From: Bacteroidota bacterium
Lineage (GTDB): Bacteria > Bacteroidota > Ignavibacteria > SZUA-365
Direction of reading: 5' to 3'
NCBI GenBank assembly: GCA_023432805.1
Contig: JAEYUG010000033.1
Coordinates: 2,654-66,653, forward strand
Length of the DNA stretch: 64,000 bases
Positions within the stretch are counted from its first letter, which is position 1; every line of letters begins with the position of its first letter. The notes beneath the pieces were generated by a model that was not told the DNA's origin, searched no databases, and worked only from the letters and a program-made list of their open reading frames with translations. The position numbers and the translations under genes were made by a program. Below, one piece after another: positions 2,535 to 40,627 of this stretch.

Positions 2535-3323
2535 CTACACAAACACGAGCAGCTTCTCCCTTACTGATCTGCTTGCGAGTTCTGCATCATACGTGATGCC
2601 AGGCCGAAGCAGTGGTGCCATGTCACTGAGAAATCCTGGGTGGCCCATTTTCTTCTCGAGATTGCTGGAGAGTACCTCACCAGTGACATGGTCGTGCTCT
2701 TCACCCAGATAGGCATGAAACACACGCGCGATTTCCCCGGGATGAATGGAATGTTGTTGGAGTCCCAGCCAGAGATCAAAGAGATCGCGTCCCTTCCTCC
2801 GCTGATACAAGGCGCGCAGCTTGGTACCGAGAAGCTCTTCGAGGGTGAATGTGCGAATCATGACCGCTGCACTGAACCATCGAGAATCCACAGCGAATGA
2901 GCGCAGTATGTAGTTGTGAACAGATGCATGTTCCCTGGTGTTGATCTCAATCTTAAGCTTCAGCACGAGCACAGGCGCAAACTCCGACATGGTGCGATAC
3001 ACCAATTTGACGGCATTTGATTTATGCTCGCGGACCGGTGTGCCAAGCCATGGATCAAGACAATGACGCAAATCGTCCAGAATGCTTCCGATCGGTGCTG
3101 CCATTGTCTGCACCAGATCGATATCCTCTGAATAGCGCGATGGCGGATTCAGATAGAGCTTGTGAAGAGCAGTTCCACCACGCATGGCCAACTGATCGGC
3201 GAGTGCCTGGTTCCCAAAGATCTCAGCCATCGCGCGGGAGATGATCAAATCCTGCTCGACCTGGGCGTTTGTGGACCATGGATGCTGTTGCCTCCATGCG
3301 AGGATGTCAGCCTGAGGTATCAT
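2535..3323 (-). CDS. abiEii: AbiEii/AbiGii-family nucleotidyltransferase toxin (type IV TA / abortive infection)
   Basis: 262-aa protein of the nucleotidyltransferase AbiEii (DUF1814) type; 4-nt overlap with the upstream AbiEi gene; region GC clearly lower than flanks. Confidence 0.75.
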   Translation of the reverse strand: MIPQADILAWRQQHPWSTNAQVEQDLIISRAMAEIFGNQALADQLAMRGGTALHKLYLNPPSRYSEDIDLVQTMAAPIGSILDDLRHCLDPWLGTPVREHKSNAVKLVYRTMSEFAPVLVLKLKIEINTREHASVHNYILRSFAVDSRWFSAAVMIRTFTLEELLGTKLRALYQRRKGRDLFDLWLGLQQHSIHPGEIARVFHAYLGEEHDHVTGEVLSSNLEKKMGHPGFLSDMAPLLRPGITYDAELASRSVREKLLVFV

Positions 3324-4117
3324 GCTTCGCTCTCGGGATTGCTGTTGACGATCACATGCCAGCGCCGATCAGAGGAATACCCTCGAGCAGGTTCCCTGAC
3401 ATCCAGCCTCGTCCTGTAGACCTTTCGGCCGCGCAGCCAATCATGCATTCCACGCAGAAGTGCGGGATCTGCGATCTGCTCCAGGAGCCACCCCGCGCGT
3501 TGCACAATGCTGATATCAGGTTCATGGCGGGCAGCATCGAGAAGATCGTCACTCGTCATGGTCGCACACAATTCATCGAGCACGGTCAGCACTGCGTCGA
3601 GACCTCCGATCGTCGAAGCGAATCTTATACAGTCCATGACCGTGGCACCGCGCGTCGAAACGGGTATCCACCCCGAGAAACCCCTGACGCTCTCGATCTG
3701 CGTCTGTTCGCATGCAACTTTGCGGAAAAAGCGGATTCTGAGCACCGGCGTACGAACGGGACGGATGGTCGTGGGTACGACGACGTGGTGTTCCTGTGGC
3801 TGCTGATGCCCCGCCCCGTGCAGTGCTGCCGCTGACAGCACGCCGACGTAATAGGGAACGCCCAGAAAACGCATCAAGTCTTCGATGTACCAGTCCAGAG
3901 GGATCATGCCACTGGATCGGTACTCCAGAGGAGTGATCGCATAGAATCCACGCCGAAGCCTGTGAATCCTGCCGTTGCGATGCAGACGCTGCAGTGCCTT
4001 GGTCAACGACTCGGGTGCCAACCCGAGCACGGATTCCACTTCGTTACGTGTGAACGAGTATCGCGCGCCCTGCTGAAGAGCATCGACATAGTCTGCGAGT
4101 GATTGCGTGCCTTTCAT
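3320..4117 (-). CDS. abiEi: AbiEi-family antitoxin / transcriptional autoregulator
   Basis: MKGTQSLADYVDALQQGARYSFTRNEVESVLGL... winged-helix N-terminus typical of AbiEi; start chosen at the ATG (4117) so that the upstream inverted repeat lies in the promoter. Confidence 0.75.
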   Translation of the reverse strand: MKGTQSLADYVDALQQGARYSFTRNEVESVLGLAPESLTKALQRLHRNGRIHRLRRGFYAITPLEYRSSGMIPLDWYIEDLMRFLGVPYYVGVLSAAALHGAGHQQPQEHHVVVPTTIRPVRTPVLRIRFFRKVACEQTQIESVRGFSGWIPVSTRGATVMDCIRFASTIGGLDAVLTVLDELCATMTSDDLLDAARHEPDISIVQRAGWLLEQIADPALLRGMHDWLRGRKVYRTRLDVREPARGYSSDRRWHVIVNSNPESEA

Positions 4118-4133
4118 GCTCCAAAAATAGCAC

Positions 4134-4156
4134 AAGTGGACGTATTAAGTCCACTT
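4134..4156. promoter_or_regulatory. Perfect 8-bp inverted repeat AAGTGGAC-N7-GTCCACTT in the AT-rich region upstream of abiEi; candidate AbiEi autoregulatory operator
   Basis: Seen directly; AbiEi proteins are known to bind inverted repeats in their own promoters. Confidence 0.4.
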
Positions 4157-4942: not shown

Positions 4943-6210
4943 ACTTCGAGCTCCTTGAACAGGGTGGCGGTGCTGCGGCGGAAGATTCCGATGCCCGAGA
5001 GCATCGTGCCGACCACCATCGAGAGCACGCCGGGAATGAAGCCGATCACGTAGGTGCGCGGCGCGATCTCGGCGCGGTAGACCGTGGGAAGCATCATCGT
5101 CGTGCTCTTCATCATGCCGCTGAAATCGAGGCCGTACTCCTGCAGGTACCACAGGCAGGCGAGGCCGACGAGCGTGCCGGCAACCGATCCGATCACGCCG
5201 ATGAGCAGGGACTCGAGCACGAGGCTTCCAAACAGGTGCCGCGCATCCTCGCCGAGCGCGAGCCGCACGCCGAACTCGGCATGGCGACGCAGTCCTCCCA
5301 GCAATCCCGTGTTCCAGAGAATGACCGACATGATGAGAATGAAGATGGCGGTGAGGATGGAATCGAGACTCTCCATGTAGTCGATGAGTCCGGCGAGCTG
5401 CTGCTGATCCTTGAGCGGAAGCATCACGGGCGCGAATGCGTCGGTCGTGTCGGTGCGTGCGTTGAATGCGGCGGCGAGCTGTGCGGCACGCGGGTGATCG
5501 TACATGCTGCCGGCGAAATAGCCGAGCACCTCGCTCGACGCGCCCTGCATGTCGAGCGCGTCCTGCGCGTCGGCAAGGTCGATGATCACACCGCCGCGGT
5601 CGAGCGCCGTTGCACCGAAGCGCACCGTGCCCGCCACACGGCACTGCCAGAAGGCCATGGACCCGTACATCGTGCTGGAGAACAGCGTGAGGTCGTCACC
5701 GGGCCGGACGCCGAGCTGTGTTGCGAACTCCTCGCTGAGCAGTGCCTCACCGCGGGCAGCGGGCAGACGGCCGCGCACGATGGAACGGGCGAGCGCCAGA
5801 CGCCGGGGTTCGGTGGTACGGGCGCCGAGCAGGTCGATGGCGAGGCCGGCGAAGGGACCCTGCCGCTTCGTCTCGCCGTGCTCGTCGGCCACGTCGGCGA
5901 GTCCGCCGAAGCGGATGCGCCGCACCCACTCCATGTCGGGATGCTCGCGCGCAAGCTCGCGCAGCAGCGCGTCGGTCTCGAGCAATGCGAGATCGTTCGG
6001 CAGCTGAGCCTCGTTTTCTTCGTAGGCACGCGTGACCACGCGCACATGTCCCGTGCTGAAGCGCGCGCTGAGATCGACCATGTCGCCGAAGATCCCGTCG
6101 ATCCATCCGCTGGCCGCAACGGTCAGGAAGACGCCGATGCCGACGATGACGAGGGGAAACATGCTGCGCGTGCGGTCGCGCAAGACGCCGAGCAGAAGGA
6201 AGCGGATCAT
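4939..6210 (-). CDS. ABC transporter permease, FtsX/MacB/LolE family
   Basis: MIRFLLLGVLRDRTRSMFPLVIVGIGVFLTVAASG... then large periplasmic domain plus C-terminal 3-TM FtsX region; ATGA overlaps on both sides. Confidence 0.85.
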   Translation of the reverse strand: MIRFLLLGVLRDRTRSMFPLVIVGIGVFLTVAASGWIDGIFGDMVDLSARFSTGHVRVVTRAYEENEAQLPNDLALLETDALLRELAREHPDMEWVRRIRFGGLADVADEHGETKRQGPFAGLAIDLLGARTTEPRRLALARSIVRGRLPAARGEALLSEEFATQLGVRPGDDLTLFSSTMYGSMAFWQCRVAGTVRFGATALDRGGVIIDLADAQDALDMQGASSEVLGYFAGSMYDHPRAAQLAAAFNARTDTTDAFAPVMLPLKDQQQLAGLIDYMESLDSILTAIFILIMSVILWNTGLLGGLRRHAEFGVRLALGEDARHLFGSLVLESLLIGVIGSVAGTLVGLACLWYLQEYGLDFSGMMKSTTMMLPTVYRAEIAPRTYVIGFIPGVLSMVVGTMLSGIGIFRRSTATLFKELEV

Positions 6211-10803: not shown

Positions 10804-13061
10804 ACACGCATTCACGCTCACGCAGCGCTGTGAAACGCAGCGCTGTGAAACACAGCGCCGGGCAACGCAACACCGGGCAACGCAGCGCCGGGCAACACAG
10901 CACAGCGTACGATGCATTGGCACTCGTGCTCATTCTCTGGCATGCCGTCCTGCTCGTACTCTCCCTTGTCGGTGGTGAGACGCTGCGACTCTGGGGCATC
11001 GACGCAGCCGGCATGATCTGGACGCATCCCGTCTCCCTCGTGCTGACCGGCGCCGCACTCGCGTACGTCCTCACCCTGCGCACGCGTCCCATGCACCGCA
11101 TGCTCGCTCACCCCGCCACACCTGCGGTGCTGCTCGGTCTCGTCGTCACCGGACTGGCTGTCATCGCCCTGCTGCAGCTCGGTCGCGGCGGGGTGCCGCC
11201 CCTGCTCGGGGATGGCGCGCTCTACCGCAGCGAGGTCCTTCGTCTCGGTCTGATTCCCGACCACGTGCCGATCTTCCTCAAGCCATCAGCGATGCTCACG
11301 GGCCCGATCCTTCTAACGCTCGTGCAGCTGACCGGAACGGCACATCCAGCAGCACCCTTCCTGCTGCTCGGACTGATCGCGCTCGTGCTCGTCGTCGGGC
11401 GCATCCTTCTTCTCGCACGTCGCCACGGTGCCGCGGGCGTGCTGCCGTTCGTGGCAGCGCTTCTGCTCACGCCGGCCTGGCTGCTGCTCTGCGGAAGCAT
11501 CGAACTCTACGCACTCCCGCTCGCCGCGGTGATCTGGCTGCTTGCGGAATTGATAACCGCCGTGCAGCATGATACTGCACGCATGACACCGATCATCATC
11601 GCCACCATTGTCGCGCTTGCAACCTCGCTCTCCGCGATCGCGCTGCTTCCCCTCAGTACATGCGTGCTCGCGTACCTCTGGTGCGTGCGCAAGGGACACG
11701 ACTGCAGCCTGCGCGCAGCGGTGCTGATCGCCATCACCGCCTCAGCTGTCGTGGCCGTTGCGGTCGTGTTCCGCGACGTGCTCGGTCTCGGCGCCTACCT
11801 GCTCCCGCCCTCCGCTGCACGGTATGTGCACGACGGTGTCGACTACGGCATCGTCCAGTACTCCATCCTTCACCCGGCGCATCTGGCGGATGCGGGCAAC
11901 ATGCTGCTGCTGGTCGGCGGCGCGTGGCTTCCCCTCGCGGGGGCGGTGCTGCTCGTGCGCCGCTGGCGCGAGGCGCTGCCCGTGCAGGTGCTGGGTTTCA
12001 TGCTGGTCGCGGCCGCGTCCTCCCTCCTCACACTTCTGTGTGCGAACGCGGCGCTCGGCATGGAGCGGGACTGGGATCTGCTCGTCGTGCCCCTGCTCAT
12101 GCTGCCGGCCTCGGCCGCCGCGATGCTCGCATCGCTCGCGCGCAGGGACGCCGCCGCGGTGCTGCGCATCCTGCCGCTGCTCGTGCTGCTCGGTGGGGCA
12201 ACGACGCATGCGTGGATCGCGGTGCAGACCGACGTGCCCACCGCGACCGACAGGCTGCTGCGCGCGATCGACCGCGACGCGCCGCTGCTGCGTGCCGATT
12301 TCACCTATTACGGCTACGAGAATCTGCGCAAGCAATTCCGCAGCGACGGCGACGACGCGGGCGTGCACGCGATGTACATGCGCATGCTCGCCACCGGGTA
12401 TCGCGCGAGCGACACGTATGAAAAGCTGCTCGCGCTGCAGTACAACACACGCAATGTGCCCGCGGCATGGATCGACGAGGTGGGCTCCTCGCTGCGCACA
12501 CGCATCGCGCGGCCGTCCCGTCGTGGCACGCACGGATTTCTCGATCGCAGGGAGCTCGGAGAACTCGCGGCACAACTGGTGGCGCAGACGGCGCGCCTCG
12601 GGGATGTGACGCGTGCGGCCATGTGGGCGGATCGGTTCGCCGAGGACTTCGCAGAGGGATGGAAGGAGGAGGCATTCGCGCGCGTGTGGCTTTCGCAGGG
12701 TGCGACCCCGCAGCAGACGGCGGAAGCCGTCTTCGCAAGCATCGACTCGACGGCACGCAGCAGCAACACGCTCTTCATGGCGGCGGTGATGTTGAAGGAC
12801 GCAGGCGCGTACGACACCGCGGCGGCATATCTCGCATGGGCGATCAAGCGGAATCCCGTCGAACACCCGATCTACTATCTGCACCGGGCGCGGCTGCTGC
12901 TGCATGTGGGACGCGTGGACGAGGGACATGCCGTCCTGCTCGCCTGTCTTTCACGGTGTCACGATCCCGCGCGTGCCGAGGAAGCGCGCGCACTGCTCGC
13001 ACAATCGGGGTATATTGGTCGTTCCCCCAAACCATTTTCGAAAGGTCGCACGTCGTGCTGA
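10797..13061 (+). CDS. Large polytopic membrane protein with C-terminal soluble TPR-like domain (GT-C / DUF2723-like glycosyltransferase candidate)
   Basis: 754 aa; >10 predicted TM segments then helical repeat region (LAWAIKRNPVEHPIYYLHRARLLLHVGRVDEGHAVL); start overlaps the GT2 stop (ATGGTAG). Confidence 0.65.
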   Translation: MVDTHSRSRSAVKRSAVKHSAGQRNTGQRSAGQHSTAYDALALVLILWHAVLLVLSLVGGETLRLWGIDAAGMIWTHPVSLVLTGAALAYVLTLRTRPMHRMLAHPATPAVLLGLVVTGLAVIALLQLGRGGVPPLLGDGALYRSEVLRLGLIPDHVPIFLKPSAMLTGPILLTLVQLTGTAHPAAPFLLLGLIALVLVVGRILLLARRHGAAGVLPFVAALLLTPAWLLLCGSIELYALPLAAVIWLLAELITAVQHDTARMTPIIIATIVALATSLSAIALLPLSTCVLAYLWCVRKGHDCSLRAAVLIAITASAVVAVAVVFRDVLGLGAYLLPPSAARYVHDGVDYGIVQYSILHPAHLADAGNMLLLVGGAWLPLAGAVLLVRRWREALPVQVLGFMLVAAASSLLTLLCANAALGMERDWDLLVVPLLMLPASAAAMLASLARRDAAAVLRILPLLVLLGGATTHAWIAVQTDVPTATDRLLRAIDRDAPLLRADFTYYGYENLRKQFRSDGDDAGVHAMYMRMLATGYRASDTYEKLLALQYNTRNVPAAWIDEVGSSLRTRIARPSRRGTHGFLDRRELGELAAQLVAQTARLGDVTRAAMWADRFAEDFAEGWKEEAFARVWLSQGATPQQTAEAVFASIDSTARSSNTLFMAAVMLKDAGAYDTAAAYLAWAIKRNPVEHPIYYLHRARLLLHVGRVDEGHAVLLACLSRCHDPARAEEARALLAQSGYIGRSPKPFSKGRTSC
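10821..10895 (+). repeat. In-frame 15-bp imperfect tandem repeat x5 (cgcagcgctgtgaaa / cacagcgccgggcaa) encoding RSAVK/RSAGQ/RNTGQ pentapeptides at the 5' end of the membrane-protein gene
   Basis: Seen directly in sequence. Confidence 0.8.
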
Positions 13062-14922: not shown

Positions 14923-14954
14923 GGGAGGACGGACGCCCTCGTCCGTCATTGACG
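14923..14954. repeat. GC-rich palindromic intergenic element (REP-like), copy A: GGGAGGACGGACGCCCTCGTCCGTCATTGACG
   Basis: 8-9 bp stem GGACGGACG/CGTCCGTCC; same core recurs at 5 other loci in this window. Confidence 0.8.
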
Positions 14955-15033
14955 CATGTTCAGTGGATGCAGGGTGGACGGGTGCTCCACGACCGCTCCA
15001 CCCCCATTGATGATTTTTTCGTAGGTTGAGGGC

Positions 15034-15807
15034 ATGTACACATTCGGCATCGACAAGCTGGGCCGCAAGACGCTGCTCTTCCTGCAGGAAGTCGGGCAGG
15101 TGAGTATCATGGTCGCCGGGATGGTGCGCAGTTCGCACCGACTGTTTCGTGACCGCCGGCTGCTTCTCGAGCAGATGCACCACATCGGCGTGGGCTCGCT
15201 GCCTCTCGTGCTGATCATCGGACTGTTCACGGGCATGGTCAGTGCCTGGCAGGCCGCATATCAGTTCAAGGGCATGATCTCGTTCTCGCTGATCGGAGGC
15301 GCTGTAAGCCGCGCGATCTTCATCGAGCTGGGTCCCGTGCTCACCGCCATCGTCATCGCCGGACGCGTGGGCGCCTCGATTGCGGCTGAACTCGGCACCA
15401 TGAAAGTGACCGAACAGATCGACGCGCTCGAAAGCATGGCCATCGATCCCGTGCGGTACCTGGCGCTTCCGCGCGTACTCGGCGCAGTGCTGATGATGCC
15501 GGTCCTGGTGGTGTTCGCCAACTCGATTGCGCTGGGAGGAGCATATCTGGTTTCCAATCTCTTCCTCGACCTGACTCCCCAGGTCTTCTTCGGCAGCGTG
15601 AAGCGGTTCTTCCAGACGAAGGACATCATGGCAGGCATTCTCAAGTCGCTGTTCTTCGGTGGCGTGACCTCGCTGCTGGGCTGCCACATCGGCTTCCGCA
15701 CTTCGGGGGGCGCCGAAGGAGTCGGCAATGCGACGATTCGTGCGTTCGTGCTCTCGGCTGCGTTCATCCTCATCCTCGACTATACCCTCTGGCTGGTGAT
15801 TTTCTGA
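15034..15807 (+). CDS. mlaE: MlaE-family ABC transporter permease (phospholipid/lipid-asymmetry type)
   Basis: 257-aa protein MYTFGIDKLGRKTLLFLQEVGQVSIMVAGM... with the MlaE/YrbE fold signature; no adjacent MlaF/MlaD. Confidence 0.85.
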   Translation: MYTFGIDKLGRKTLLFLQEVGQVSIMVAGMVRSSHRLFRDRRLLLEQMHHIGVGSLPLVLIIGLFTGMVSAWQAAYQFKGMISFSLIGGAVSRAIFIELGPVLTAIVIAGRVGASIAAELGTMKVTEQIDALESMAIDPVRYLALPRVLGAVLMMPVLVVFANSIALGGAYLVSNLFLDLTPQVFFGSVKRFFQTKDIMAGILKSLFFGGVTSLLGCHIGFRTSGGAEGVGNATIRAFVLSAAFILILDYTLWLVIF

Positions 15808-15822
15808 GCAGCGGTGGCATGT

Positions 15823-15852
15823 GGGGAGACGGACGGGGGCGTCCGTCCTCCC
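15823..15852. repeat. REP-like element copy B, inverted orientation (GGGGAGACGGACGGGGGCGTCCGTCCTCCC), followed by TTGTACGGGGGGG
   Basis: Reverse complement of the core with 2 mismatches. Confidence 0.7.
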
Positions 15853-15978
15853 ATGGGATCTACCTTGTACGGGGGGGTATGGGGTGGTATTTTGACTCCA
15901 ACTGAACATCCGAACGAATCGTTGATCAGCGGTGTTCTGTAAGACAACGCCGTCAACGATTGAACGAAGATAGAATCC

Positions 15979-18603
<2,625 letters not shown>

Positions 18604-18606
18604 GCA

Positions 18607-18635
18607 GGAGGACGGACGCCCTCGTCCGTCCGTCC
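18607..18635. repeat. REP-like element copy C immediately after the clpC stop
   Basis: GGAGGACGGACGCCCTCGTCCGTCCGTCC. Confidence 0.75.
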
Positions 18636-18689
18636 ATCGATACATCATCAGCATGTGAGGATAGACGAAAGTACTCCACCGAACGATCA

Positions 18690-18720
18690 CGGGGCGGCCA
18701 CTGGCCGCCCCGCTCTGTTT
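18690..18720 (+). terminator. Intrinsic terminator after clpC (CGGGGCGGCC-actg-GGCCGCCCCG followed by CTCTGTTT)
   Basis: Perfect GC stem plus T-tract. Confidence 0.6.
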
Positions 18721-18730
18721 CACGCATCGC

Positions 18731-19279
18731 TCATCGAAGAATGATCACCATCCGTTGTACGACAGATGCTCCCGAGCGGATCCGGAGCACGTATGATCCT
18801 GGCGAAAGCTCGGGAGCATGCAGTCGGATATGCGAGGGACCTGCAGGAAGCAGCTCGTCTGCGACCGTCAGGATGGTCGTGCCCAGCAGCGTGTGCAAAG
18901 TCACCTGTGTATGGGCTGCTCGTGGATTCATGATCTCGATGGTCGTGCTCCCGCGGGAGGGATTCGGGTACACGCTTCCGATGATGATCGATGCCGGCAC
19001 CGTCACAGCTTCCGCGGAGATGACAGTCGAAGCCGTGTCGCACAACACGCATCCATAGCCGGAATGGAGTATGGTGCCTGCTGAAGCCGCAGAATCCACC
19101 GCACCCTGTCCGGGCACGGATCGGGCAGTCCATGATGCACTTGTACTCACGCCCGCGCCGCTTGCAATCAGATCCGCAATGATGCGGAAGGACGCAGACT
19201 GTTGCGCATGCAATGGGACTGCCGACACGAACAGCATGCAGAGGCATGCAAGCGCAGCCCCCCGTCGTCGGGGTGTCAT
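18731..19279 (-). CDS. Small secreted protein consisting essentially of a signal peptide and a T9SS type-A C-terminal sorting domain
   Basis: Signal peptide [26 protein letters not shown]; C-terminus SVYPNPSRGSTTIEI...GSYVLRIRSGASVVQRMVIIL is a T9SS CTD; 4-nt overlap with the collagen-like gene. Confidence 0.55.
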   Translation of the reverse strand: MTPRRRGAALACLCMLFVSAVPLHAQQSASFRIIADLIASGAGVSTSASWTARSVPGQGAVDSAASAGTILHSGYGCVLCDTASTVISAEAVTVPASIIIGSVYPNPSRGSTTIEIMNPRAAHTQVTLHTLLGTTILTVADELLPAGPSHIRLHAPELSPGSYVLRIRSGASVVQRMVIILR

Positions 19280-21159
19280 CGCGCACCTCGCCATGGTTGC
19301 CGGCTGCCGGACTGCCAGTGCGGGGTCTGCGCGGCAGGGAGCTTCCCCCGGGTGGGGGCGGCCGTGTGGTGTGGACGCGGTACGCGGGCGTCGGGATCCG
19401 CTGCGGAGCCTCGGTCTGAGGCGACGTTGTGTTCCTCCAATCTCACATCTTCATAGCCCCTTCGCTTCGCACTGATCTGGTAGTCGAAGGGGATGGTCGC
19501 GTGACCTCCGCCGAGCTCACGCACGACAAAATGGTCGGGGGCCTTGTGGGCGATGTAGAGTCCTGCACAGTCGCCCCCCGGGGTCAGGATGATCTGTGGG
19601 AGATGCTCGGCATCGATGGTGACGGTTTCGCGGAAGATGGGATCGATCGGTACGATTGCCTCGCCGTCGCGCAGCGTGGCCGTGCCGAAATCGGTATAGC
19701 GCACGTCGGCTGCCTCGACTGCGTACATGCGGCGTGTGCCGTAGGACGTGGTCTTGACGATGTTGTTCTTCGTGCCGGTGAAGAAGAAGTCGCCCATGGG
19801 ATTCAGATGACCGACGAAGCCTCCGGTCGGGGATTTGATGGTGAGTCCCTCGAGCGGTGAGATTTCGAGGATGTTTCCATTTTCGAGGGGGATGCGGATG
19901 CCGGCCCAGTAGGTTTCAAGGCCGGAATGCTCGGAGGTGCCGTCTTCGTGGAAATCGACGAGTTTATTGCCTGCGGCATCGACAATGTGCAGGCTGCGGA
20001 AGTAGCCTTCGCCTGTCATATCGATAGCAGCGACCTTGTTGCCGAGCGTGTCGTAGACGGACACGCCGTCGGAGCCGAGCACGATGCCACCATCGTTGTT
20101 CGGGTTGTACACACCGATCGAAGAACCCCGCAGCCAGCCACCGTGGAGCCAGGTCGTGTCGCGGTAGCCGGTTGCGGGATCGTGATAGGTGTACTGCTCG
20201 AGCAGGCTGTGGCGAGACCCGGTCGTATCGAAACCGATGAGCTCGACGCGTCCTGCAGGATCGGTCAGATCGCCCTTGACGATGTGCAGGCTGCGGAAGT
20301 ATCCCTCTCCCGTCGAATCGATGAACCCGTTGACGGCGAGTCCGTCGGTGATGAGGATCTGGCGTGTAGCCACGCCGTCCTTCGTCAGCACGGTACTCCT
20401 GGACGTTGGCAGGTCGCCACCGACGCTGATGCCGTCGTGGTAGTGCTCCCATCCGATGTGTTCGGAAGAGCCTGTGACGATGAGGGTGTCGACGACGAGG
20501 CGGGAGAGTGTATCGAGCACGATCAGTGTGTCGACCGTGAGTCTGGTGATCGTGTCGGGAACGCCGGCAGGTCCGGCGGGTCCGGCAGGTCCGGCAGGAC
20601 CAGCGGGACCAGCGGGACCAGCGGGACCGGCAGGACCAGCGGGACCAGCGGGACCGGCAGGACCAGCGAGACCGGCAGGACCGGCAGGGCCGGCAGGTCC
20701 CGGAGGCAGGGGGTGTTTGAGCGAATCCGCATACAGCGCGACCATGGCGAGCGGCACGGGCTGCAGCGGGATCGGCGGTTCGAGCACTTCGCCGTTGACG
20801 GTCAGACGCAATGCAGCACGCGTTTGAAAGATCAGTGGATTGAGTGGATTGTTGAGTGTGTCGACGCTTCCGATGGCGTGTTCGAAGAGCCCGTTCGAGA
20901 CCATGAGGTTCGAGACGGTTTCCTCGAACAATATCGGGTTTCCGGGACGCGTCAGATCCACGATGGTGAACCGAACGCTCAACGCGCCATTGTAGCGCGA
21001 ACCATCGGGTTTCGTCAGGCAGCCCTGATAGTGGAAGACGCGCTGAACGGTTGGAGACGGGCGGTCGGCGCTGCGGTCAGGTAGGGACGTCTGCGCGTGA
21101 AGCACGCACGACAACAGCAGGCAGCATGCGGCGCTGCCAATGTATTTCGCAAGGTGCAT
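19276..21159 (-). CDS. Collagen-like triple-helix repeat protein with signal peptide ([10 protein letters not shown]...), C-terminal region of unknown fold
   Basis: [23 protein letters not shown] signal; about 16 uninterrupted Gly-Pro-Ala triplets; the C-terminal ~60 aa are Arg/Pro-rich and look like an out-of-frame tail. Confidence 0.7.
20564..20706. repeat. 9-bp tandem repeat array (ccggcaggt / ccagcggga variants) encoding (GPA)n
   Basis: Seen directly. Confidence 0.9.
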
Positions 21160-21350
21160 GATGACACTCCTTCAGCTGATGAGCGGATCGGCCACATGGT
21201 GGCCGTGAGGAAGCGAGGTCAGGGATGCAGGGTATGTGGGATGGAGATGGAAAATATAGAGGCGGGATATCCGAATAGCAAGGAAAAATGCTCACGGCAC
21301 CCCGTGTGGAACTCCCAGTGCACGGACGTACGACGGTTCGCCGGACAGCG

Positions 21351-21734
21351 TCAGTTTCCGCGGGCGACCAGATGGAAGCGGGGGATGGCGGCCTCGAAGG
21401 TGCTGCCGTCTTCGCGGCGCATGGTATAGGTTCCTTCCATCGAGCCTTCGAAGGATTTCAGCACGCAGAAGCTGTTGTAGGTGTGGCTCTCCCCCGGAGT
21501 GATGGTCGGCTGGCGACCGACCACGCCATCGCCCTCGACCTCATAGTCGGCGGCGGCGGAATCGTGGATGTACCAGTGGCGTCGAAGAAGTTGCACGGGC
21601 CCGGTTCCCTCGTTGGTGATTGACACGAAGTACACGAAGAAGAACTGGCCGCGCAGAATGTCGGACCGCTCCTCCAGGAAGAAGGGCTGCACCGTGACTG
21701 TCACGCCTTCGGTTGTTTCCGTGTATGCGACCAT
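21351..21734 (-). CDS. apaG: ApaG (DUF525) protein
   Basis: MVAYTETTEGVTVTVQPFFLEERSDILRGQFFFVYFVSITNEG ApaG signature. Confidence 0.85.
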   Translation of the reverse strand: MVAYTETTEGVTVTVQPFFLEERSDILRGQFFFVYFVSITNEGTGPVQLLRRHWYIHDSAAADYEVEGDGVVGRQPTITPGESHTYNSFCVLKSFEGSMEGTYTMRREDGSTFEAAIPRFHLVARGN

Positions 21735-21795
21735 GACTCAGTTCTCCGTCGATCGGGCGTCACATGACGCTCCTATCAGGTAAACGCACAAACAC

Positions 21796-22557
21796 TCAAT
21801 AACGATCCAGGCGAAAGGACTCGCCCAGATAGATTTTTCTCGCCTCGGCATCTCCGGCAAGTGCCTCGCTCGTACCTTCGAGCAGGATGGTCCCGTCGAA
21901 GAGCAGATAAGCGCGGTCGACGATCGAGAGCGTTTCGTGCACGTTGTGGTCGGTGATGAGCACACCGATGTTGCGCTGCTTGAGTGTGCGCACGATGTTC
22001 ATGATGTCTTCGACGGCGATGGGGTCCACCCCCGCGAAGGGTTCGTCAAGAAGGATGAAGCTGGGATTCACCGCAAGGGCGCGGGCGATCTCGCAGCGGC
22101 GCCGCTCTCCCCCGCTGAGCATGTAGCCCTTGCTCGCACGGATGTGGGTGATGTTGAAATCCTCCATGAGTTCTTCTGCTCGACGTTTTCTGTCTGCGCG
22201 CGCGAGTCCCATGATCTCGAGCACGGCGATGAGGTTCTGTTCGACGGTGAGCTGACGGAAGACCGAGGCCTCCTGCGGGAGGTAGCCGATGCCACGGCGG
22301 GCGCGCTTGTACATCGGCAGTGACGTGATGCGCTGCTCGTCGAGGTAGACATCCCCGGCGCTGGGACGAATCATGCCGGTGATCATGTAGAAGGTGGTGG
22401 TCTTGCCGGCGCCGTTGGGTCCGAGCAGTCCGACGATCTCGCCCTGCTGCACCGACACGCTTGCGCCCTTGACGACGTCGCGCTTGCCGTATCGGCGCCG
22501 TAGGTTCTCAGAGCGGAGGGTGCGGGGTGTGGGGGAATCCATCCTTGAATTTACCAC
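21796..22557 (-). CDS. lptB: LPS export ABC transporter ATP-binding protein LptB
   Basis: LRSENLRRRYGKRDVVKGASVSVQQGEIVGLLGPNGAGKTTTFYMITGMIRP...LSGGERRRCEIARAL. Confidence 0.9.
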   Translation of the reverse strand: MVNSRMDSPTPRTLRSENLRRRYGKRDVVKGASVSVQQGEIVGLLGPNGAGKTTTFYMITGMIRPSAGDVYLDEQRITSLPMYKRARRGIGYLPQEASVFRQLTVEQNLIAVLEIMGLARADRKRRAEELMEDFNITHIRASKGYMLSGGERRRCEIARALAVNPSFILLDEPFAGVDPIAVEDIMNIVRTLKQRNIGVLITDHNVHETLSIVDRAYLLFDGTILLEGTSEALAGDAEARKIYLGESFRLDRY

Positions 22558-22579
22558 CAGGTTGCGTCATCACAAAGAT

Positions 22580-22631
22580 GGGAGGACAGACGCCCTCGTG
22601 GGAGGACGGACGCCCTCGTCCGTCATTGACG
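22580..22631. repeat. REP-like elements, copy D (one degenerate plus one full copy in tandem) between tatD and lptB
   Basis: GGGAGGACAGACGCCCTCGT GGGAGGACGGACGCCCTCGTCCGTCATTGACG; the 3' flank TTGACGAATGTACAGGGG resembles copy A's TTGACGCATGTTCAGTGG. Confidence 0.8.
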
Positions 22632-22657
22632 AATGTACAGGGGTGTCTGCATCGAGC

Positions 22658-25761: not shown

Positions 25762-25958
25762 CCGGACGCGATGCGCGTTTCAGCCTTTCGTTTGCGATAT
25801 TGCGGGGGCAGCGCAATACGATCGGCCGGCGATGGCTTCCGCAGTGCGGTTTCGGATGTGACCGCAGGTGCGGTGCAACATTCGCCCCCCGACGGCGTAC
25901 GATCAGAAACGAATTGTCGCGCCTCCGACATGTCCATCCACCACCACTGTCGCACCGC

Positions 25959-28211
25959 ATGAGACTCGAACGCAAGGTCCTGGTGATCGTCTCGATCATT
26001 GCGTTCGGCGTGGACTTCCTGTACCTGGTCGCACGCAATGCCCTCCAGGATGGGGCGGGTCCCTCAGCGGATCTGTTCCATCTCGTGCTGATGCTCATCG
26101 GCGCAGCGGCATTGACCGTCTACGCGCTGCGCATCCGCGGACACGCCGAGCACAATCCCCTCCGTGTGATCGGCATCGTGGTAGGCATCGCGACGGGACT
26201 CCTCCTCCTGCTCGGTCTGTTGCAGCTGTCGACCGGTACCGAGTTCGTGATGACCGGCAAGGGATTCGGTCCGCGCAACGTCGTCAGCGTGCTGGTCGCG
26301 ATCCTGATCGGCATCACCGCGCTTGCGGGGGGCATCTTCATGTCGGTCTCCCTTGCAGAGCTGATCTTCGTCAAGCGTCGCCGCAAGACCAGGCGCAACT
26401 TCGTGCTGCTGCTTTCGATCACCGCACTCTACGCCGTGCTCGCCGCGTTCATCGACCCTTCGCTCGACGGTGACACACCCTGGCACGTGACGCTGCTGTT
26501 CGTCGTCATGCTGGCGATCATGCTCGTCAACACCTTCCGCTTCTCGTGGATCCTTGTGCTCTCACGCCGCGAAAAGCTCTTCAACCTGCTCCTCTCCTTC
26601 TTCGGCTTCGTGTTCTTCACGATGCTCGCCACCGACATCACCGTACTGACCAGCGATCCCCTGAGCGGCGGGTTGCTGCATCACGCCGTTCGCTACTACC
26701 ATCCCCTCGTCTGGGCGACCGTGTCTTCGGTCTGCCTGTTCGGCGCACTGTACATGGGCATCGGCTTCGCCAGCACCCTGCTGCATCTGCCGACGGCCAA
26801 GGAGTTCGACCGCAAGAAGGTGGAAATCAGTTCCCTCCAGAACATGGGCCGCCTTGTCACCCAGGTGTTCGACTTCGAGGAACTGGTGGGAACAAGCACG
26901 GCACTCGCGCTGGATGTGTGCGAGGCGAACGCCGCGTGGCTCGAGCTCGCCATCCCCGATACGCAGGTGGCGGGATCGACCGATGCACACCTCGCCCTCA
27001 CGTCGGAAGCCACCGCCGACGCCGGCTTCGATGTGATCAGCGAATCCCTGCGCGGCATCACCATCGATCAGATCATGCGCATGCGCATGGATGGCGGGCA
27101 GCATCTGCGCGAACTCGTCGCCGAGACCGCACGCGCCATCGTCATTCAGGACGTGCAGGCCGACCGGCGCCTGAACGCGGCACAGTTGCACACGATCGGC
27201 ATCGGATCGCTCGCCCTCGTGCCCCTGCTCAGCCACGACCGCCTCATCGGCATCCTCGGCGTGGTGAAGAAGAATCCCTACGAATTCGACAAGGACGTGC
27301 TCACCGTGCTCTACGCCTTCGCCGACATGGTGTCGATCGCGCTCGAGAACAGCCGCCTGATCGAGGAGAGTCTGCGTCGCGAGCGCTTCCAGCAGGAGAT
27401 CCGCGTGGCGCAGGACATGCAGCGCAGTCTGCTGCCTGTGCTGCTTCCCGTCGCAGACACCTACGCGCTCGCCGCGACGAGCCTGCCGGCGTATGAAGTT
27501 GGTGGGGACTATTACGACGTCGTGCAGCTCGACAACGACAGGCTCGGTATCACCATCGGCGACGTGTCGGGCAAGGGTGTGTCTGCAGCGTTGTACATGG
27601 CGCAGGTCAAGGGCATCTTTCAGACGCTGAGTTCGCACGGACTCTCCACCCGAGAGAGTCTCATGGCGATGAACGAGACACTGCGCAAGAACATGGATCG
27701 CCGCTCGTTCATCAGCCTGATCTACGGCGTGCTCGACATCCGCACCGGCCACCTGCGCTTTTCGCGTGCGGGTCATTGTCCGCTGCTGTATATTTCGCGA
27801 CAAACCGTGCGTTTTCTTCGTCCCGACGGCATGGGCCTCGGATTGTCGGGGACAGAGCAGTTCGCATCCTCGCTCAAGGAAGAGGAGGTTCAGCTCGAAC
27901 CCGGTGATGTCATGGTGCTCTACACCGACGGCATCACGGAGGCGAAGACCAGGTCCGGTGATGAATTCGGCACCGATCGCCTCGCACACATCGTTGAACA
28001 ACTGCAACACGAATCCGTTGAAACCATCATGACGTCCATCGTCAAAACCGTGAAAGAGTATACAGGAGCCGGCGAAGCCGAGGATGACATGACCGTCATG
28101 GTCTTGCGTTGGGATGGCGCGGCCTCCGGCGCATCCGACCCTGCGTCGGGAGGACGCGACGCGCACGCGCACGGCATCGGGCAGCCACAGCAAGAAGGAG
28201 CGGCAGCATGA
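25959..28211 (+). CDS. Membrane-bound GAF-domain PP2C-type serine phosphatase (RsbU/SpoIIE-like) with ~8 N-terminal TM helices
   Basis: N-terminal hydrophobic helices; GAF-like central region; C-terminal PP2C motifs GGDYYDVVQLDNDRLGITIGDVSGKGVSAALYM ... TDGITEA. Confidence 0.85.
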   Translation: MRLERKVLVIVSIIAFGVDFLYLVARNALQDGAGPSADLFHLVLMLIGAAALTVYALRIRGHAEHNPLRVIGIVVGIATGLLLLLGLLQLSTGTEFVMTGKGFGPRNVVSVLVAILIGITALAGGIFMSVSLAELIFVKRRRKTRRNFVLLLSITALYAVLAAFIDPSLDGDTPWHVTLLFVVMLAIMLVNTFRFSWILVLSRREKLFNLLLSFFGFVFFTMLATDITVLTSDPLSGGLLHHAVRYYHPLVWATVSSVCLFGALYMGIGFASTLLHLPTAKEFDRKKVEISSLQNMGRLVTQVFDFEELVGTSTALALDVCEANAAWLELAIPDTQVAGSTDAHLALTSEATADAGFDVISESLRGITIDQIMRMRMDGGQHLRELVAETARAIVIQDVQADRRLNAAQLHTIGIGSLALVPLLSHDRLIGILGVVKKNPYEFDKDVLTVLYAFADMVSIALENSRLIEESLRRERFQQEIRVAQDMQRSLLPVLLPVADTYALAATSLPAYEVGGDYYDVVQLDNDRLGITIGDVSGKGVSAALYMAQVKGIFQTLSSHGLSTRESLMAMNETLRKNMDRRSFISLIYGVLDIRTGHLRFSRAGHCPLLYISRQTVRFLRPDGMGLGLSGTEQFASSLKEEEVQLEPGDVMVLYTDGITEAKTRSGDEFGTDRLAHIVEQLQHESVETIMTSIVKTVKEYTGAGEAEDDMTVMVLRWDGAASGASDPASGGRDAHAHGIGQPQQEGAAA

Positions 28212-28561
28212 GTGATTTCAATGTCGGCGTGCGGCATGTGGACCGTGTGACCGTGCTCGACCTGCGCGGGTACCTCGACGCACATACCGCACCCGAACTC
28301 GAACGGGCCTTCCAGTCCAACATCGACAACAGCCGCTTCAATCTCGTGGTGAATTTCTCGGAACTCTCGTACATCTCGAGTGCGGGGCTCGGTGTGCTCA
28401 TGCAGTTCATCGAGGATGTGCGCCGCAACGAGGGAGACATCAAGTTGACGAACATGTCGGCGCGTGTCTACAACGTCTTCGATCTGCTCGGCTTCCCCAT
28501 GCTCTATGAGATCTACCCCGACGAAGGGGATGCCGTCGCGAAGTTCCAGAACAATTCCTGA
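28208..28561 (+). CDS. STAS-domain anti-sigma-factor antagonist (RsbV/SpoIIAA-like)
   Basis: MSDFNVGVRHVDRVTVLDLRGYLDAHTAPELE...LSYISSAGLGVL (conserved phosphorylatable Ser context); ATGA overlap. Confidence 0.85.
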   Translation: MSDFNVGVRHVDRVTVLDLRGYLDAHTAPELERAFQSNIDNSRFNLVVNFSELSYISSAGLGVLMQFIEDVRRNEGDIKLTNMSARVYNVFDLLGFPMLYEIYPDEGDAVAKFQNNS

Positions 28562-28618
28562 TCCTCTCCGTATCCCCACGCAACGCACAGCGACGCACCG
28601 CAGCCTCCGACGGCGCAC

Positions 28619-29083
28619 GTGACCACTCCCGACCGACATATCGACCGCACGCTGGAAATCAACAGCCGCACCGACCTGCTCGGTGATGTGCGCGCCTTCG
28701 TGACGCGCGCGGCGGCGGATTTCGGATTCGGCGGCGACGACGTCGGTGCCATCGAGCTGGCGGTGGATGAGGCGATCACCAACATCATCAAGCATGCCTA
28801 CAAGTACGATCCCTCCGGCGTGATCCGCGTCGTGGTCACGACCCAGGAGAACGGCGAGGGACGCGGCCGCTTCACCGTCAGCATTTCGGATACGGGTATT
28901 TCGTTCGACACCTCGCGCTACCATGCTCCCGACATGGCCGAGTACTTCCGCACGCTGCGACGCGGCGGACTCGGCATCGTGCTGATGAACAAGCTGATGG
29001 ACGAGGTCATCTACGACATCCATCCCGGTGCGGCGAACCACCTGCGCCTGGTCAAGTACCGCGCCTCCTCCTCCCTTTCCTGA
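28619..29083 (+). CDS. RsbW/SpoIIAB-like anti-sigma regulatory serine kinase (HATPase_c)
   Basis: ELAVDEAITNIIKHAY (N-box) ... ISDTGISFD ... GGLGIVLMNKLMDEV (G-boxes); GTG start. Confidence 0.8.
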   Translation: MTTPDRHIDRTLEINSRTDLLGDVRAFVTRAAADFGFGGDDVGAIELAVDEAITNIIKHAYKYDPSGVIRVVVTTQENGEGRGRFTVSISDTGISFDTSRYHAPDMAEYFRTLRRGGLGIVLMNKLMDEVIYDIHPGAANHLRLVKYRASSSLS

Positions 29084-29099
29084 TCGCGTCGATCGCGGC

Positions 29100-30881
29100 A
29101 TGACCGATCCGACGCACGCTCCCCTGCCTGCTGCACCGCAAGGCGACAACGCGACGCGACGTGCGGGCGATGCCTATTCCGACAGCGCGGCACTGCTCGA
29201 ACTCAGTTCCATCCTCAACGCCTCGCTCGATCTCCCCTTCATCCTCAGCAACGTACTGCTCTCGCTCATGGGCAAGCTGCTTGCCACCCGCGGCGTCGTG
29301 CTGGTCGAGCACGACCAGTGGTGCTATCGCGTCGCGAGCCTGAAGGGCGTGACGGGCCGCAGCCTCGACACCGAATTCGTGCTGCCCGTCGACTGGCCGG
29401 GGTTCCTCGCTCTCGACACCCTCGACGACACCCTCGACGAACACGTGCGCGAATTCGCGAACTGCTGCAGGGAATGCGGCATCCGTGTGCTCGTGCCGAT
29501 GCGTGTCGAGGAGCGCATGGTCGGCGTGATCGGTCTCGGTGCGCGACTCAACGGCGCGGACTATGACGCGCCCGCCGTCACCTTCATCGAGAGCGTCGCC
29601 GCCGTGGCGGCATCCGCCGTGAAGAACGCCGTGACGATCGACGCCCTGCGCGATGCCAACCGCCGGCTCGACGCCAAGTATCAGGAGATGAACACGCTCT
29701 TCGAACTCAGCCGCGAAATGACGGGCACCTTCGATGAGCAGAACATTCTGCGCGTGCTCGGCTACGCGCTCATGGGCCAGATGCGCGCCATGCGCTATGT
29801 CGTGTTCGTGCGCGATGGCGACACCATGCGTCCCACACTCGTGCGCATCGACGGCGTCGACACGGATGTCGATCACGCGCGCGACATGCTCGCCTGCACC
29901 CGGCCCGTACGACTCGGTGCAGACCACCAGCCCGCATCGGCATTCGAGCAGTGGATGCTCTCGCTGGGCATCGGTGTGATCATTCCGATGATCGGACAGC
30001 GGCAGGTTCGCGGACTGCTCTGCATCGGCGAGCGGCTCGGGGGACAGCCCTTCGACAGCGCGGAAATCGAATACCTCGGTGCGCTCGCAAACATCACGAT
30101 GAGTGCGCTCGAAAACGCGCGCCTCGTCAAGGAAACCGTCGAGAAGGAGCGCCTCGAACGCGAGCTCGATCTCGCGCGCACCATCCAGAAGGGCCTGCTG
30201 CCCGACCACCTGCTCTCGCCCGACGGCTATCACGTCGCCGCGCTGAACGAATCGTCGCAGCAGGTCGGCGGAGACTACTACGATGTGATCGCCCTCTCTC
30301 CGACACGCAGCGTACTCGCGATAGGTGATGTTGCAGGAAAGGGCATCCCCGCCTCGCTCCTCATGGCCAATGTGCAGGCCGCGTTCCGCACCATCATCCC
30401 CCTCGGTCTCTCCCCTGCGGAAGCCACCGCGCGCATCAACATCCTCGTGCACGCCAACACCGCAATCGACAAGTTCATCACCTTCTTCTGGGGTGTGCTC
30501 GACACCGAGGAACACACCTTCACCTACGTCAATGCGGGACACAATCCCCCCTGCCTCGTCCGTGCCGACGGCACGCTTTCGCTGCTCGAACATGGTGGCC
30601 TGATCCTCGGCGTCATGCCCGATCCGCCGCCCTACGCCAGCGACACCGTCTCGCTGCTGCCCGGTGACACCCTCGTGTTGTACACCGACGGCGTGAACGA
30701 AGCGCTCTCGAGCGAGATGAAGGAATTCGGGGATGACCGCCTGCAGCAGCTGATCATCGAACAGTCCGGCGTGGACGCAGACCGCATGCTGGAAGCCGTG
30801 CGTGACGCCGTACACGACTTTACCACCGGAGCACCGCAGTCCGACGACATCACACTGCTGGTCCTGCACCGCCTCCCCTGA
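29100..30881 (+). CDS. Cytoplasmic tandem-GAF PP2C-type serine phosphatase (second RsbU/RsbP-like phosphatase)
   Basis: VGGDYYDVIALSPTRSVLAIGDVAGKGIPASLLMA ... LYTDGVNEA PP2C motifs; no TM segments. Confidence 0.85.
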   Translation: MTDPTHAPLPAAPQGDNATRRAGDAYSDSAALLELSSILNASLDLPFILSNVLLSLMGKLLATRGVVLVEHDQWCYRVASLKGVTGRSLDTEFVLPVDWPGFLALDTLDDTLDEHVREFANCCRECGIRVLVPMRVEERMVGVIGLGARLNGADYDAPAVTFIESVAAVAASAVKNAVTIDALRDANRRLDAKYQEMNTLFELSREMTGTFDEQNILRVLGYALMGQMRAMRYVVFVRDGDTMRPTLVRIDGVDTDVDHARDMLACTRPVRLGADHQPASAFEQWMLSLGIGVIIPMIGQRQVRGLLCIGERLGGQPFDSAEIEYLGALANITMSALENARLVKETVEKERLERELDLARTIQKGLLPDHLLSPDGYHVAALNESSQQVGGDYYDVIALSPTRSVLAIGDVAGKGIPASLLMANVQAAFRTIIPLGLSPAEATARINILVHANTAIDKFITFFWGVLDTEEHTFTYVNAGHNPPCLVRADGTLSLLEHGGLILGVMPDPPPYASDTVSLLPGDTLVLYTDGVNEALSSEMKEFGDDRLQQLIIEQSGVDADRMLEAVRDAVHDFTTGAPQSDDITLLVLHRLP

Positions 30882-39050: not shown

Positions 39051-39292
39051 GCCGACACCATCTCGACACGGCGCAGACCGGGCACAGCGAGGAGGATGGC
39101 GCGCTCGACGCCTGCACGCAGGGTCATGATCGCAAGCGAGCATGTCGCGCAGGCGCCGAGGAAGCGGACTTCGACGATGCCGTCGGCGCTGACGGACACG
39201 AATTCGATGTCGCCGCCGTCGATCTGCAGGTGCGGGCGGACCTGGTCGAGGACCCCCCGGATGCGTCGTTCGTGCTGGACGAGATCGATCAT
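39047..39292 (-). CDS. NifU-like (Nfu) Fe-S cluster scaffold domain protein
   Basis: GGDIEFVSVSADGIVEVRFLGACATCSLAIMTL (CxxC). Confidence 0.8.
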   Translation of the reverse strand: MIDLVQHERRIRGVLDQVRPHLQIDGGDIEFVSVSADGIVEVRFLGACATCSLAIMTLRAGVERAILLAVPGLRRVEMVSA

Positions 39293-39307
39293 GTGCGTGG
39301 GGCCGGA

Positions 39308-40429: not shown

Positions 40430-40508
40430 TCGTGGAGGTGCTGTGTATCATTGAAAATTACTGCACCCCCCCATCCCGTACAACCCACCCCGGGAGGCCG
40501 GCTGCCCG

Positions 40509-40612
40509 CTGGGCGGACGGACGCCCTCGTCCGTCATGGGAGGACGGACGCCCTCGTCCGTCATGGGAGGACGGACGCCCCGCTGGGAGGACGGACGCCC
40601 TCGTCCGTCATT
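40509..40612. repeat. Tandem array of 4 REP-like units (27-bp period TGGGAGGACGGACGCCCTCGTCCGTCA; third copy truncated), preceded by CCCCCCATCCCGTACAA
   Basis: Seen directly; lies in the divergent region between mrp (-) and the SDR gene (+). Confidence 0.85.
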
Positions 40613-40627
40613 TGTGTATATTTGACG

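Follow-up and report, generated by a model that had tools for sequence, protein, structure and literature searches.

The closest described counterparts of the element reported here are repetitive extragenic palindromic (REP) sequences. GTAG-tagged REPs carry a GTAG or GTGG head, the TAG of which can serve as a stop codon, and lie within 20 bp of the 3' ends of open reading frames (ORFs), and head-to-tail dimers of them are rare (Di Nocera, De Gregorio & Rocco 2013, PMC3733652). Mobilization of REPs and of REP doublets (REPINs) by a trans-acting HUH/Y1 transposase is proposed in PMC3116915 and PMC3337134. In Bacteroidetes, genes of TnpA-Y1 subclass 2.6, or REP-associated tyrosine transposase (RAYT) group 5, are flanked by atypical, non-GTAG hairpins and their products are without the conserved GTAG-recognition residues; the host genomes contain further copies of these atypical structures at other sites (Quentin et al. 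2018, PMC6006769). Here we describe a family of 26–27-nt hairpin-forming repeats, with core GGGAGGACGGACGCCCTCGTCCGTCA, in a 64,000-nt stretch of DNA (the window) from an uncultured Ignavibacteria-like bacterium of the Bacteroidota and the Fibrobacteres–Chlorobi–Bacteroidetes (FCB) group. It is a new REP-type family with a non-canonical head and unusual head-to-tail arrays, in a lineage in which few such repeats have been described, and it was probably moved in trans by a HUH/Y1 (RAYT-like) transposase and then transcribed as a hairpin.

The sequence examined comprised 80.6 kb (positions 38168-118822 of the 128-kb metagenome contig ENA ERZ27268833 k141_17521), of which positions 45634-109633 form the window. 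A search of the whole window with the 26-mer GGGAGGACGGACGCCCTCGTCCGTCA, in which up to three mismatches were allowed, returned seven matches with at most two mismatches each (copies A to D and E1 to E3; Table 1), against zero matches in 100 dinucleotide-preserving shuffles, with none expected by chance. Reading of the sequence and half-site scans revealed three partial copies besides, two of them truncated (D' and E3') and one degenerate (E0). Together the copies, designated by the string GGGAGGACGGACGCCCTCGTCCGTC, occupy five loci, each intergenic by gene calls. A structure-aware covariance model built from the seven full copies (R1) and run across the window with filters off recovered exactly these seven at 28–53 bits, while beyond them and their reverse-strand echoes the best score was 10 bits and no diverged copies were found; because of this clean gap between copies and background, the family appears homogeneous and without old, decayed members in the window. 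It is also the only dispersed non-coding repeat family there. A preliminary description of this DNA had rightly recognized a recurring hairpin-forming core, the 1.5 copies between tatD and the lptB-like gene, and placement where mRNA 3' ends or leaders would lie, copies being found just past stop codons or in operon and promoter spacers. It had counted six intergenic loci, of which the intergenic position stands and the number does not, and the array that it placed at 40509 is indeed tandem (40510-40611, period 27, 4.0 copies by Tandem Repeats Finder (TRF)) but consists of three full and two partial copies and lies outside the interval 14923-22631 to which the family had been assigned.

Each unit consists of an unpaired head, (T)GGGAG, a G+C-rich stem of 8 bp (GACGGACG/CGTCCGTC), an asymmetric loop, CCCT, and a short tail, usually AT; the longer stem of copy C and the variant loop of copy B are listed in Table 1. 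Individual heads read CCGGGAG, CATGGGAG, GCAGGAG, CGTGGGAG, GCTGGGAG and GCTGGGCG. Folding as single-stranded DNA is predicted at -11.3 to -13.5 kcal/mol for stretches with a single copy and at -19.9 kcal/mol for the stretch with D' and D, and the hairpin of copy C is predicted at -13.2 kcal/mol (z -4.3). Variable accessory flanks and head-to-tail truncated copies extend this core into mosaic units of 47–70 nt. Within the 80.6 kb, TTGACGnATGTnCAGnGG occurs only 3' of copies A and D, in register, and CCCGTACAA only 5' of B and E, in identical relative orientation, 8–12 nt upstream and preceded by a C-run; both flank pairs had been noticed before, as had the greater length of the unit relative to the hairpin, which is borne out by these pairwise flanks and by a composite of 47–50 nt. 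This composite, a partial followed by a full copy, is 92% identical over 50 nt between D (22578-22627) and E (40563-40612), and therefore the 47-nt mosaic unit has itself been dispersed or homogenized.

ClpC encoded in the window is 81–87% identical to ClpC of metagenome-assembled genomes (MAGs) labelled Ignavibacteria, Ignavibacteriae or Bacteroidota, and genes for PorV and for several Por_Secre_tail (type IX secretion) proteins are present on the same contig, which together identify the host as an uncultured, G+C-rich, Ignavibacteria-like member of the FCB group. Syntenic loci of 9–22 kb each were compared from three relatives or relative pairs, namely L094 (GCA_016720835.1, ClpC 83%), L095/L096 (84%) and L097 (86%). 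The relatives retain the order SPASM gene, mlaE, clpC and DUF525 as far as each locus reaches, and ABC-ATPase and tatD are also kept together in the two 22-kb loci. The element is absent from the orthologous spacers, and from elsewhere in the 9–22 kb, of L094, L095/L096 and L097, as would be expected for an inserted REP-type element when related genomes are checked. The tatD/ABC-ATPase genes overlap or lie 10 nt apart in L094 and L095/L096 versus 115 nt in the window, most of which is element, and in the relatives clpC is followed directly by a canonical terminator, a hairpin with a T-tract, and the element is missing there. Because syntenic relatives are without the element at orthologous sites, and given these junction lengths, the copies are lineage-specific insertions or amplifications. 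In L098, the closest relative (ClpC 87%), two tandem GGGAGGACGG half-sites without a palindrome stand exactly after the clpC stop codon and point either to older occupation of the clpC site with later turnover or to a preferred site.

The unexpected point is that the 21-nt stem-loop is shared, to the nucleotide, with GTAG-headed REPs of Acidobacteriota and Planctomycetota. The 21-mer GGACGGACGCCCTCGTCCGTC, scanned over one genome per species (GTDB), was found at at least 85 loci, nearly all in MAGs of Acidobacteriota (Terriglobia) and Planctomycetota (Schlesneria, Pirellulaceae and Planctomycetaceae); the figures that follow are among the matches listed. Single matches fell in Vogesella, a Dormibacterota bin, a Thermoplasmata bin and Cystobacter, the last two apparently intragenic. 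The window core agrees with these at every position (21 of 21 nt), the asymmetric CCCT loop included, and has the same head-to-loop orientation. GT[AG]G precedes 72 of 92 foreign copies, either directly before the core (37 GTAG, 16 GTGG) or as nGTA that becomes GTAG with the first G of the core (19), and in about 14 foreign cases the TAG of the head is the stop codon of the upstream ORF. With respect to the nearest gene, foreign copies point either way (30 versus 16). In Planctomycetota, an inverted second arm often lies 20–40 nt from the copy. In Acidobacteriota, a second hairpin follows it.

The Acidobacteriota two-hairpin element (L002-L086) has the form CCACGT[AG]G-GGACGGACGCCCTCGTCCGTCC-[AG]G-CCGAGC-GAA-GCTCGG (for example L005:6351-6411, L021:4187-4306 and L010:1694-1819). 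Its second hairpin varies in a compensatory manner at all six pairs across 45 copies, and no Rfam family covers it. In different species, several of its copies lie at the ends of orthologous genes, and convergent gene pairs carry one copy each. In the Pirellulaceae JTS-RE308 (L026, L045, L081 and L011), the core forms part of a conserved unit that is longer, at roughly 100 nt or more, and has the structure GGTAGTGATACCATTTGACGAATTC-GTAGGACGGACGCCCTCGTCCGTCCTA-spacer-inverted second arm-CAAACGGTATCA, which resembles a REPIN or a miniature inverted-repeat transposable element (MITE) with outer inverted repeats. An Acidobacteriaceae MAG (L058) carries two Acido-Lenti-1 RNA motifs (RF01687, 60–62 bits; 5732-5777 and 6077-6122, minus strand) 100–300 nt from a copy of the REP core. 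RAYT searches used 11 RAYT/TIRYT query proteins (Additional file 5 of PMC3733652) in tblastn together with a motif regular expression over 913 kb including the fetched loci, and gave matches only in L043 and L026, both to RAYT/TIRYT-like HUH-Y1 ORFs (L043:4257-4748 and L026:6031-6603, both minus strand) each with a different hairpin repeat on its flanks (GGCACGACTnGAAGTCGTGCC, and GGGCGGGTCTCC repeats) that is unrelated to the core. The L043 copy seems to be interrupted by a stop codon, with a partial duplicate downstream.

All-against-all clustering of the ORFs of the 85 foreign loci gave no recurrent neighbour except syntenic housekeeping genes; viral contigs scanned for the 21-mer gave 0 matches and thus no vector, and a blastn search of plasmids with two tandem units gave no match. 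The exact 26-mer had zero matches in a scan of Joint Genome Institute (JGI) metagenomes, where the relaxed pattern GAGGACGGACGCCCNCGTCCGTC had one (L093), which is not of the window type because its head is TAGTGGA. The core sequence is absent from the searchable literature text. By sequence identity, one REP hairpin is found in at least three distant phyla (those of the Acidobacteriota, the Planctomycetota and this Ignavibacteria-like FCB bacterium, with single hits in Vogesella and the Dormibacterota bin). A REP system and its transposase may have passed horizontally between phyla in communities of soil, peat or sludge, the guide head being re-tuned from GTAG to GGGAG in the new host, or a conserved constraint of host or transposase may force convergence on this hairpin; we put this interpretation of one hairpin across phyla forward tentatively and consider it somewhat doubtful. 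Chance convergence on an 8-bp stem with a 4-nt loop seems unlikely, which leaves horizontal spread and a common recognition constraint, two options between which the present data do not discriminate.

Compared with described systems, the window family is a short imperfect palindrome in the 20–40-nt range that forms a stem-loop, and it is dispersed and extragenic (five loci with seven full and two to three partial copies, all intergenic, in 80.6 kb). It resembles GTAG-tagged REPs (PMC3733652) and RAYT/REPIN systems (Nunvar 2010, PMC2817692; Bertels & Rainey 2011, PMC3116915) in size (20–40 nt), G+C-rich stem (6–13 bp) and short loop, and shares with them an unpaired 5' head of about 4–5 nt, extragenic placement near ORF 3' ends, occurrence as singletons and clusters, and lineage-specific presence. 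Its stem-loop is that of the GT[AG]G-headed Acidobacteriota and Planctomycetota repeats. Like the bacterial interspersed mosaic elements (BIMEs) of E. coli, it forms mosaics of a conserved palindrome with alternative flanks (L and R in the window) and intergenic clusters; BIME REPs alternate in orientation (PMC2817692), whereas the window units are all direct, with a 27-nt period. CGTC-tagged REPs of Chlorobi, Bacteroidetes and Alphaproteobacteria have 8–9-bp stems, 4–5-nt loops and unpaired tails ending in CCA, are likewise found in FCB-group hosts, and have no known dedicated transposase. Copies A and D on the reverse strand read CGTCAATGACGGACG...CGTCCGTCCTCCCA, with CGTC(AA) preceding the reverse-strand stem, and the window tail CTCCCA ends in CCA; however, CGTC is present at only these two of the five loci, the first stem pairs are not A-T, unlike the nearly invariant A-T of the CGTC type, and the consensus was compared by description. 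The atypical structures of subclass 2.6 (PMC6006769) share the host superphylum and are hairpins without a GTAG guide, a likeness at the level of description, and no subclass 2.6 gene was found near the window copies. Rfam gave nothing at gathering score in the window, and its E-value mode returned only chance-level hits far below gathering scores. A CRISPR (clustered regularly interspaced short palindromic repeats) array was also considered and rejected: the 27-nt period equals the repeat length, so the array is without spacers, and there are no cas genes in the Pfam lists.

Several observations weigh against mobilization by a RAYT-like transposase. No Y1/RAYT gene was found in the 80.6 kb by Pfam lists, by tblastn with the 11 RAYT/TIRYT proteins or by HUH...Y motif scans, which sets the window apart from RAYT systems, and the RAYT-like genes of L043 (Acidobacteriota) and L026 (Pirellulaceae) are flanked by other hairpins and not by the 21-mer core. 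Window copies have a (T)GGGAG head where GTAG-tagged REPs have GT[AG]G, with GTGG preceding only one of ten copies (copy D), and there 2 nt farther from the stem. Copies in opposite orientation never lie within 100 nt of each other at a window locus, so that REPIN- or BIME-like doublets are absent along with the inverted head-head and tail-tail dimers of GTAG-tagged REPs; instead, arrays D and E run head-to-tail and include truncated units. Finally, the five loci seen in 80 kb all lie inside one 26-kb stretch. Membership of the window family in the RAYT-mobilized REP/REPIN class is thus not established. Because such a transposase gene would be present once per genome, its absence from 80.6 kb neither supports nor refutes the inference, and because of the subclass 2.6 precedent (PMC6006769), a missing GTAG head does not exclude a Y1 agent.

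The account that we favour, movement in trans by a HUH/Y1 transposase followed by transcription, would involve copying at the DNA level through the hairpin on single-stranded DNA. By analogy with REP systems, the likeliest agent would be a single-copy HUH/Y1 tyrosine transposase of the RAYT/TnpA-REP type, acting in trans and encoded elsewhere in the genome. Tandem and truncated copies could have arisen by local replication slippage or unequal recombination. Once inserted, the element would be transcribed in the 3' untranslated regions (UTRs) of the radical-SAM gene, mlaE and clpC and in the tatD/ABC-ATPase intercistronic RNA, where the hairpin, if it behaves as other REPs do, plausibly blocks 3'-5' exonucleases or modulates read-through.

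An alternative interpretation is that the repeat is a host-selected RNA element, a 3'-UTR or intercistronic stabilizer or attenuator hairpin that exists for its function and not through mobility. Four of the five loci lie 2–32 nt downstream of a stop codon, the predicted hairpin is stable, copy C sits between the clpC stop codon and its terminator, and REPs are known to act as 3'-UTR and intercistronic hairpins (background in PMC3733652). We nevertheless consider this rather unlikely as the origin of the family, because A and C are sense to the transcript but B and D antisense, such that the asymmetric head and loop would differ in RNA, and because array E lies between divergent genes, an improbable 3' UTR. 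Relatives with ordinary terminators are without the element at the orthologous positions, and this absence, the existence of truncated copies and the lack of an Rfam match argue in the same direction. The functional interpretation is compatible with the best explanation, however, and concerns why copies persist.

A perfect 8-4-8 palindrome could also be an operator for a dimeric DNA-binding protein, in a regulon or as a nucleoid-protein site with GACGGACG-N4-CGTCCGTC as the putative site, and locus E, with several tandem sites in a divergent promoter region, would suit such a role. We regard this as very unlikely, since four of the five loci are directly past stop codons and not at promoters, the non-palindromic head, loop and tail of the window copies are conserved as strongly as the stem, sites are missing in relatives with the same genes, and truncated half-copies exist. 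A promoter reading of the TTGACG flank was likewise rejected, there being no -10 element at the right spacing and no room before the start codon of the short-chain dehydrogenase gene; promoters of the FCB group differ from the sigma-70 consensus.

Equally little credence can be given to a MITE or the solo end of a conventional insertion sequence (IS) with terminal inverted repeats and target-site duplications, despite the short, dispersed, intergenic copies, some with flanks in common. Alignment of the five loci with 80-nt flanks confined conservation to the core and showed neither terminal inverted repeats beyond the palindrome nor target-site duplications at any locus, the unit of 26–47 nt is smaller than typical MITEs, no matching IS occurs in the 80 kb, and plasmids and viral contigs were negative. 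Of the REP/MITE-type label in the preliminary description, the part that describes a dispersed, hairpin-forming, extragenic, REP-like element is therefore retained and the MITE part is not; the check for target-site duplications that it had suggested came out negative at all five loci.

Ordinary intrinsic terminators or chance G+C-rich palindromes, which a genome of ~63% G+C and copies at gene ends might suggest, can be dismissed, given the empty shuffles, the lack of a T-tract past any full copy, the identical sequence at five loci (unexpected of independent terminators), the position of copy D inside an operon and antisense to its transcript, and a separate canonical terminator 60 nt past copy C, which shows, as the preliminary description had held from the missing U-tract, that the element is not the terminator. 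The only element copy that a terminator scan picks up, and weakly, is truncated D' on the minus strand. To read the array as coding sequence (27 nt corresponding to nine codons, with MGGRTPSSV repeats) was an option also set aside, as coincidence: the array has no homologue and lies between well-supported divergent genes, and its translation in all open frames had no match among 5.8 billion predicted proteins.

REP families outside Proteobacteria are, to our knowledge, poorly catalogued, which would make an FCB-group family whose head is not GTAG useful to have. Since it shares its exact stem-loop with GTAG-headed REPs, the family is suited to the study of RAYT guide recognition and of REP movement between phyla, although current concepts remain unchanged unless cross-phylum transfer is demonstrated. 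For annotation, the copies explain assembly breaks, spurious ORFs across the array and long spacers inside tight operons. In an independent Logan assembly (run SRR13347295), contigs end at ~14951 (copy A) and ~40585 (copy E3), as happens with repeats that exceed the assembler k-mer in length. A mechanical ORF of 797 aa (window 39038-41431, plus strand) traverses array E as well as two genuine genes that diverge from each other; in genomes rich in G+C, such repeats can give rise to false gene calls.

Table 1 Copies of the repeat family, their flanks and adjacent hairpins (window coordinates).
Feature	Position	Strand	Details	Context
Copy A, full core GGGAGGACGGACGCCCTCGTCCGTCA	14923..14948	+	R1 52.1 bits; 8-bp stem, CCCT loop	6 nt past radical-SAM/SPASM gene stop (14916); 85 nt before mlaE (15034)
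R flank of A, TTGACGCATGTTCAGTGG	14949..14966	+	Common to copy D, 15/18 positions, in register	
Copy B, inverted, 2 mismatches	15827..15852	-	R1 45.9 bits; loop CCCC	19 nt past mlaE stop (15807); upstream of clpC (15979)
L flank of B, CCCCCCCGTACAAGGTAGATCCCAT	15853..15877	-	Includes CCCGTACAA at 15865-15873, common to locus E	
G-T-rich hairpin with T-tract	15860-15887	+	Overlaps L flank of copy B	
Copy C, AGGAGG head	18606..18631	+	R1 45.2 bits; 9-bp stem ending ...GTCC	2 nt past clpC stop (18603)
Canonical terminator-like hairpin, non-family, CGGGGCGGCC ACT GGCCGCCCCG then CTCTGTTTC	18690..18721	+	Scan flags 18690-18712	
Truncated copy D' (GGGAGGACAGACGCCCTCGT)	22580..22599	+	Head-to-tail with copy D	
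Copy D, full, 0 mismatches	22600..22625	+	R1 53.1 bits	Within minus-strand operon; 32 nt past tatD stop (22658), before ABC-ATPase (lptB-like) start (22542)
R flank of D, TTGACGAATGTACAGGGG	22626..22643	+	Common to copy A	
L flank of locus E, CCCCCCCATCCCGTACAACCCACCCC	40465..40491	+	CCCGTACAA at 40475-40483	
Degenerate truncated copy E0 (GGGAGGCCGGCTGCCCGCT)	40492..40510	+	Row 40489-40538, 70% identity to composite reference	
Copy E1, GGGCGG head, 1 mismatch	40511..40537	+	26-mer match, TRF, R1	
Copy E2, full 27-nt unit	40538..40564	+	R1 52.2 bits	
Truncated copy E3' (GGGAGGACGGACGCCCCGCT)	40565..40584	+	E3' plus E3 92% identical to D' plus D over 50 nt	
Copy E3, full, final array unit	40585..40611	+	R1 51.9 bits	
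Array E				Between divergent Mrp/ParA-type FeS-assembly ATPase gene (-) and short-chain dehydrogenase gene (+)

Downstream of copy A, window positions 14972-15030 contain GGGTGGACGG, which resembles a degenerate head, together with a 7-bp stem (GGGTGGA...TCCACCC) and, 12 nt beyond that stem, TTTTTT; either the radical-SAM gene is in fact terminated here, or this may be what is left of an element copy. Directly adjoining copy C is an insertion, relative to the syntenic relatives, of two genes between clpC and DUF525, a 182-aa Por_Secre_tail gene (18731-19294) and an adjacent gene (19276-21159, minus strand) for a 627-aa protein without a Pfam hit, in which a 9-nt tandem repeat at 20546-20734 encodes a collagen-like (GPA)n tract of ~16 triplets. 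A second coding repeat, of 15 nt (ACGCAGCGCTGTGAA and variants, five to six copies, 10820-10909), lies in a 754-aa ORF without a Pfam hit that belongs to a glycosyltransferase, methyltransferase and radical-SAM-SPASM gene cluster.

Farther from the repeats, an AbiEi/AbiEii pair (type IV toxin-antitoxin or abortive infection; 2535-4135, minus strand) beside katG has a third-codon-position G+C content (GC3) of 0.59–0.64, compared with ~0.8 in neighbouring genes, and was probably acquired horizontally. A partner-switching module (25800-30881, plus strand), which comprises a GAF-SpoIIE phosphatase, a STAS anti-anti-sigma factor, a HATPase_c_2 anti-sigma kinase and a second GAF-SpoIIE phosphatase, is kept in the relatives.

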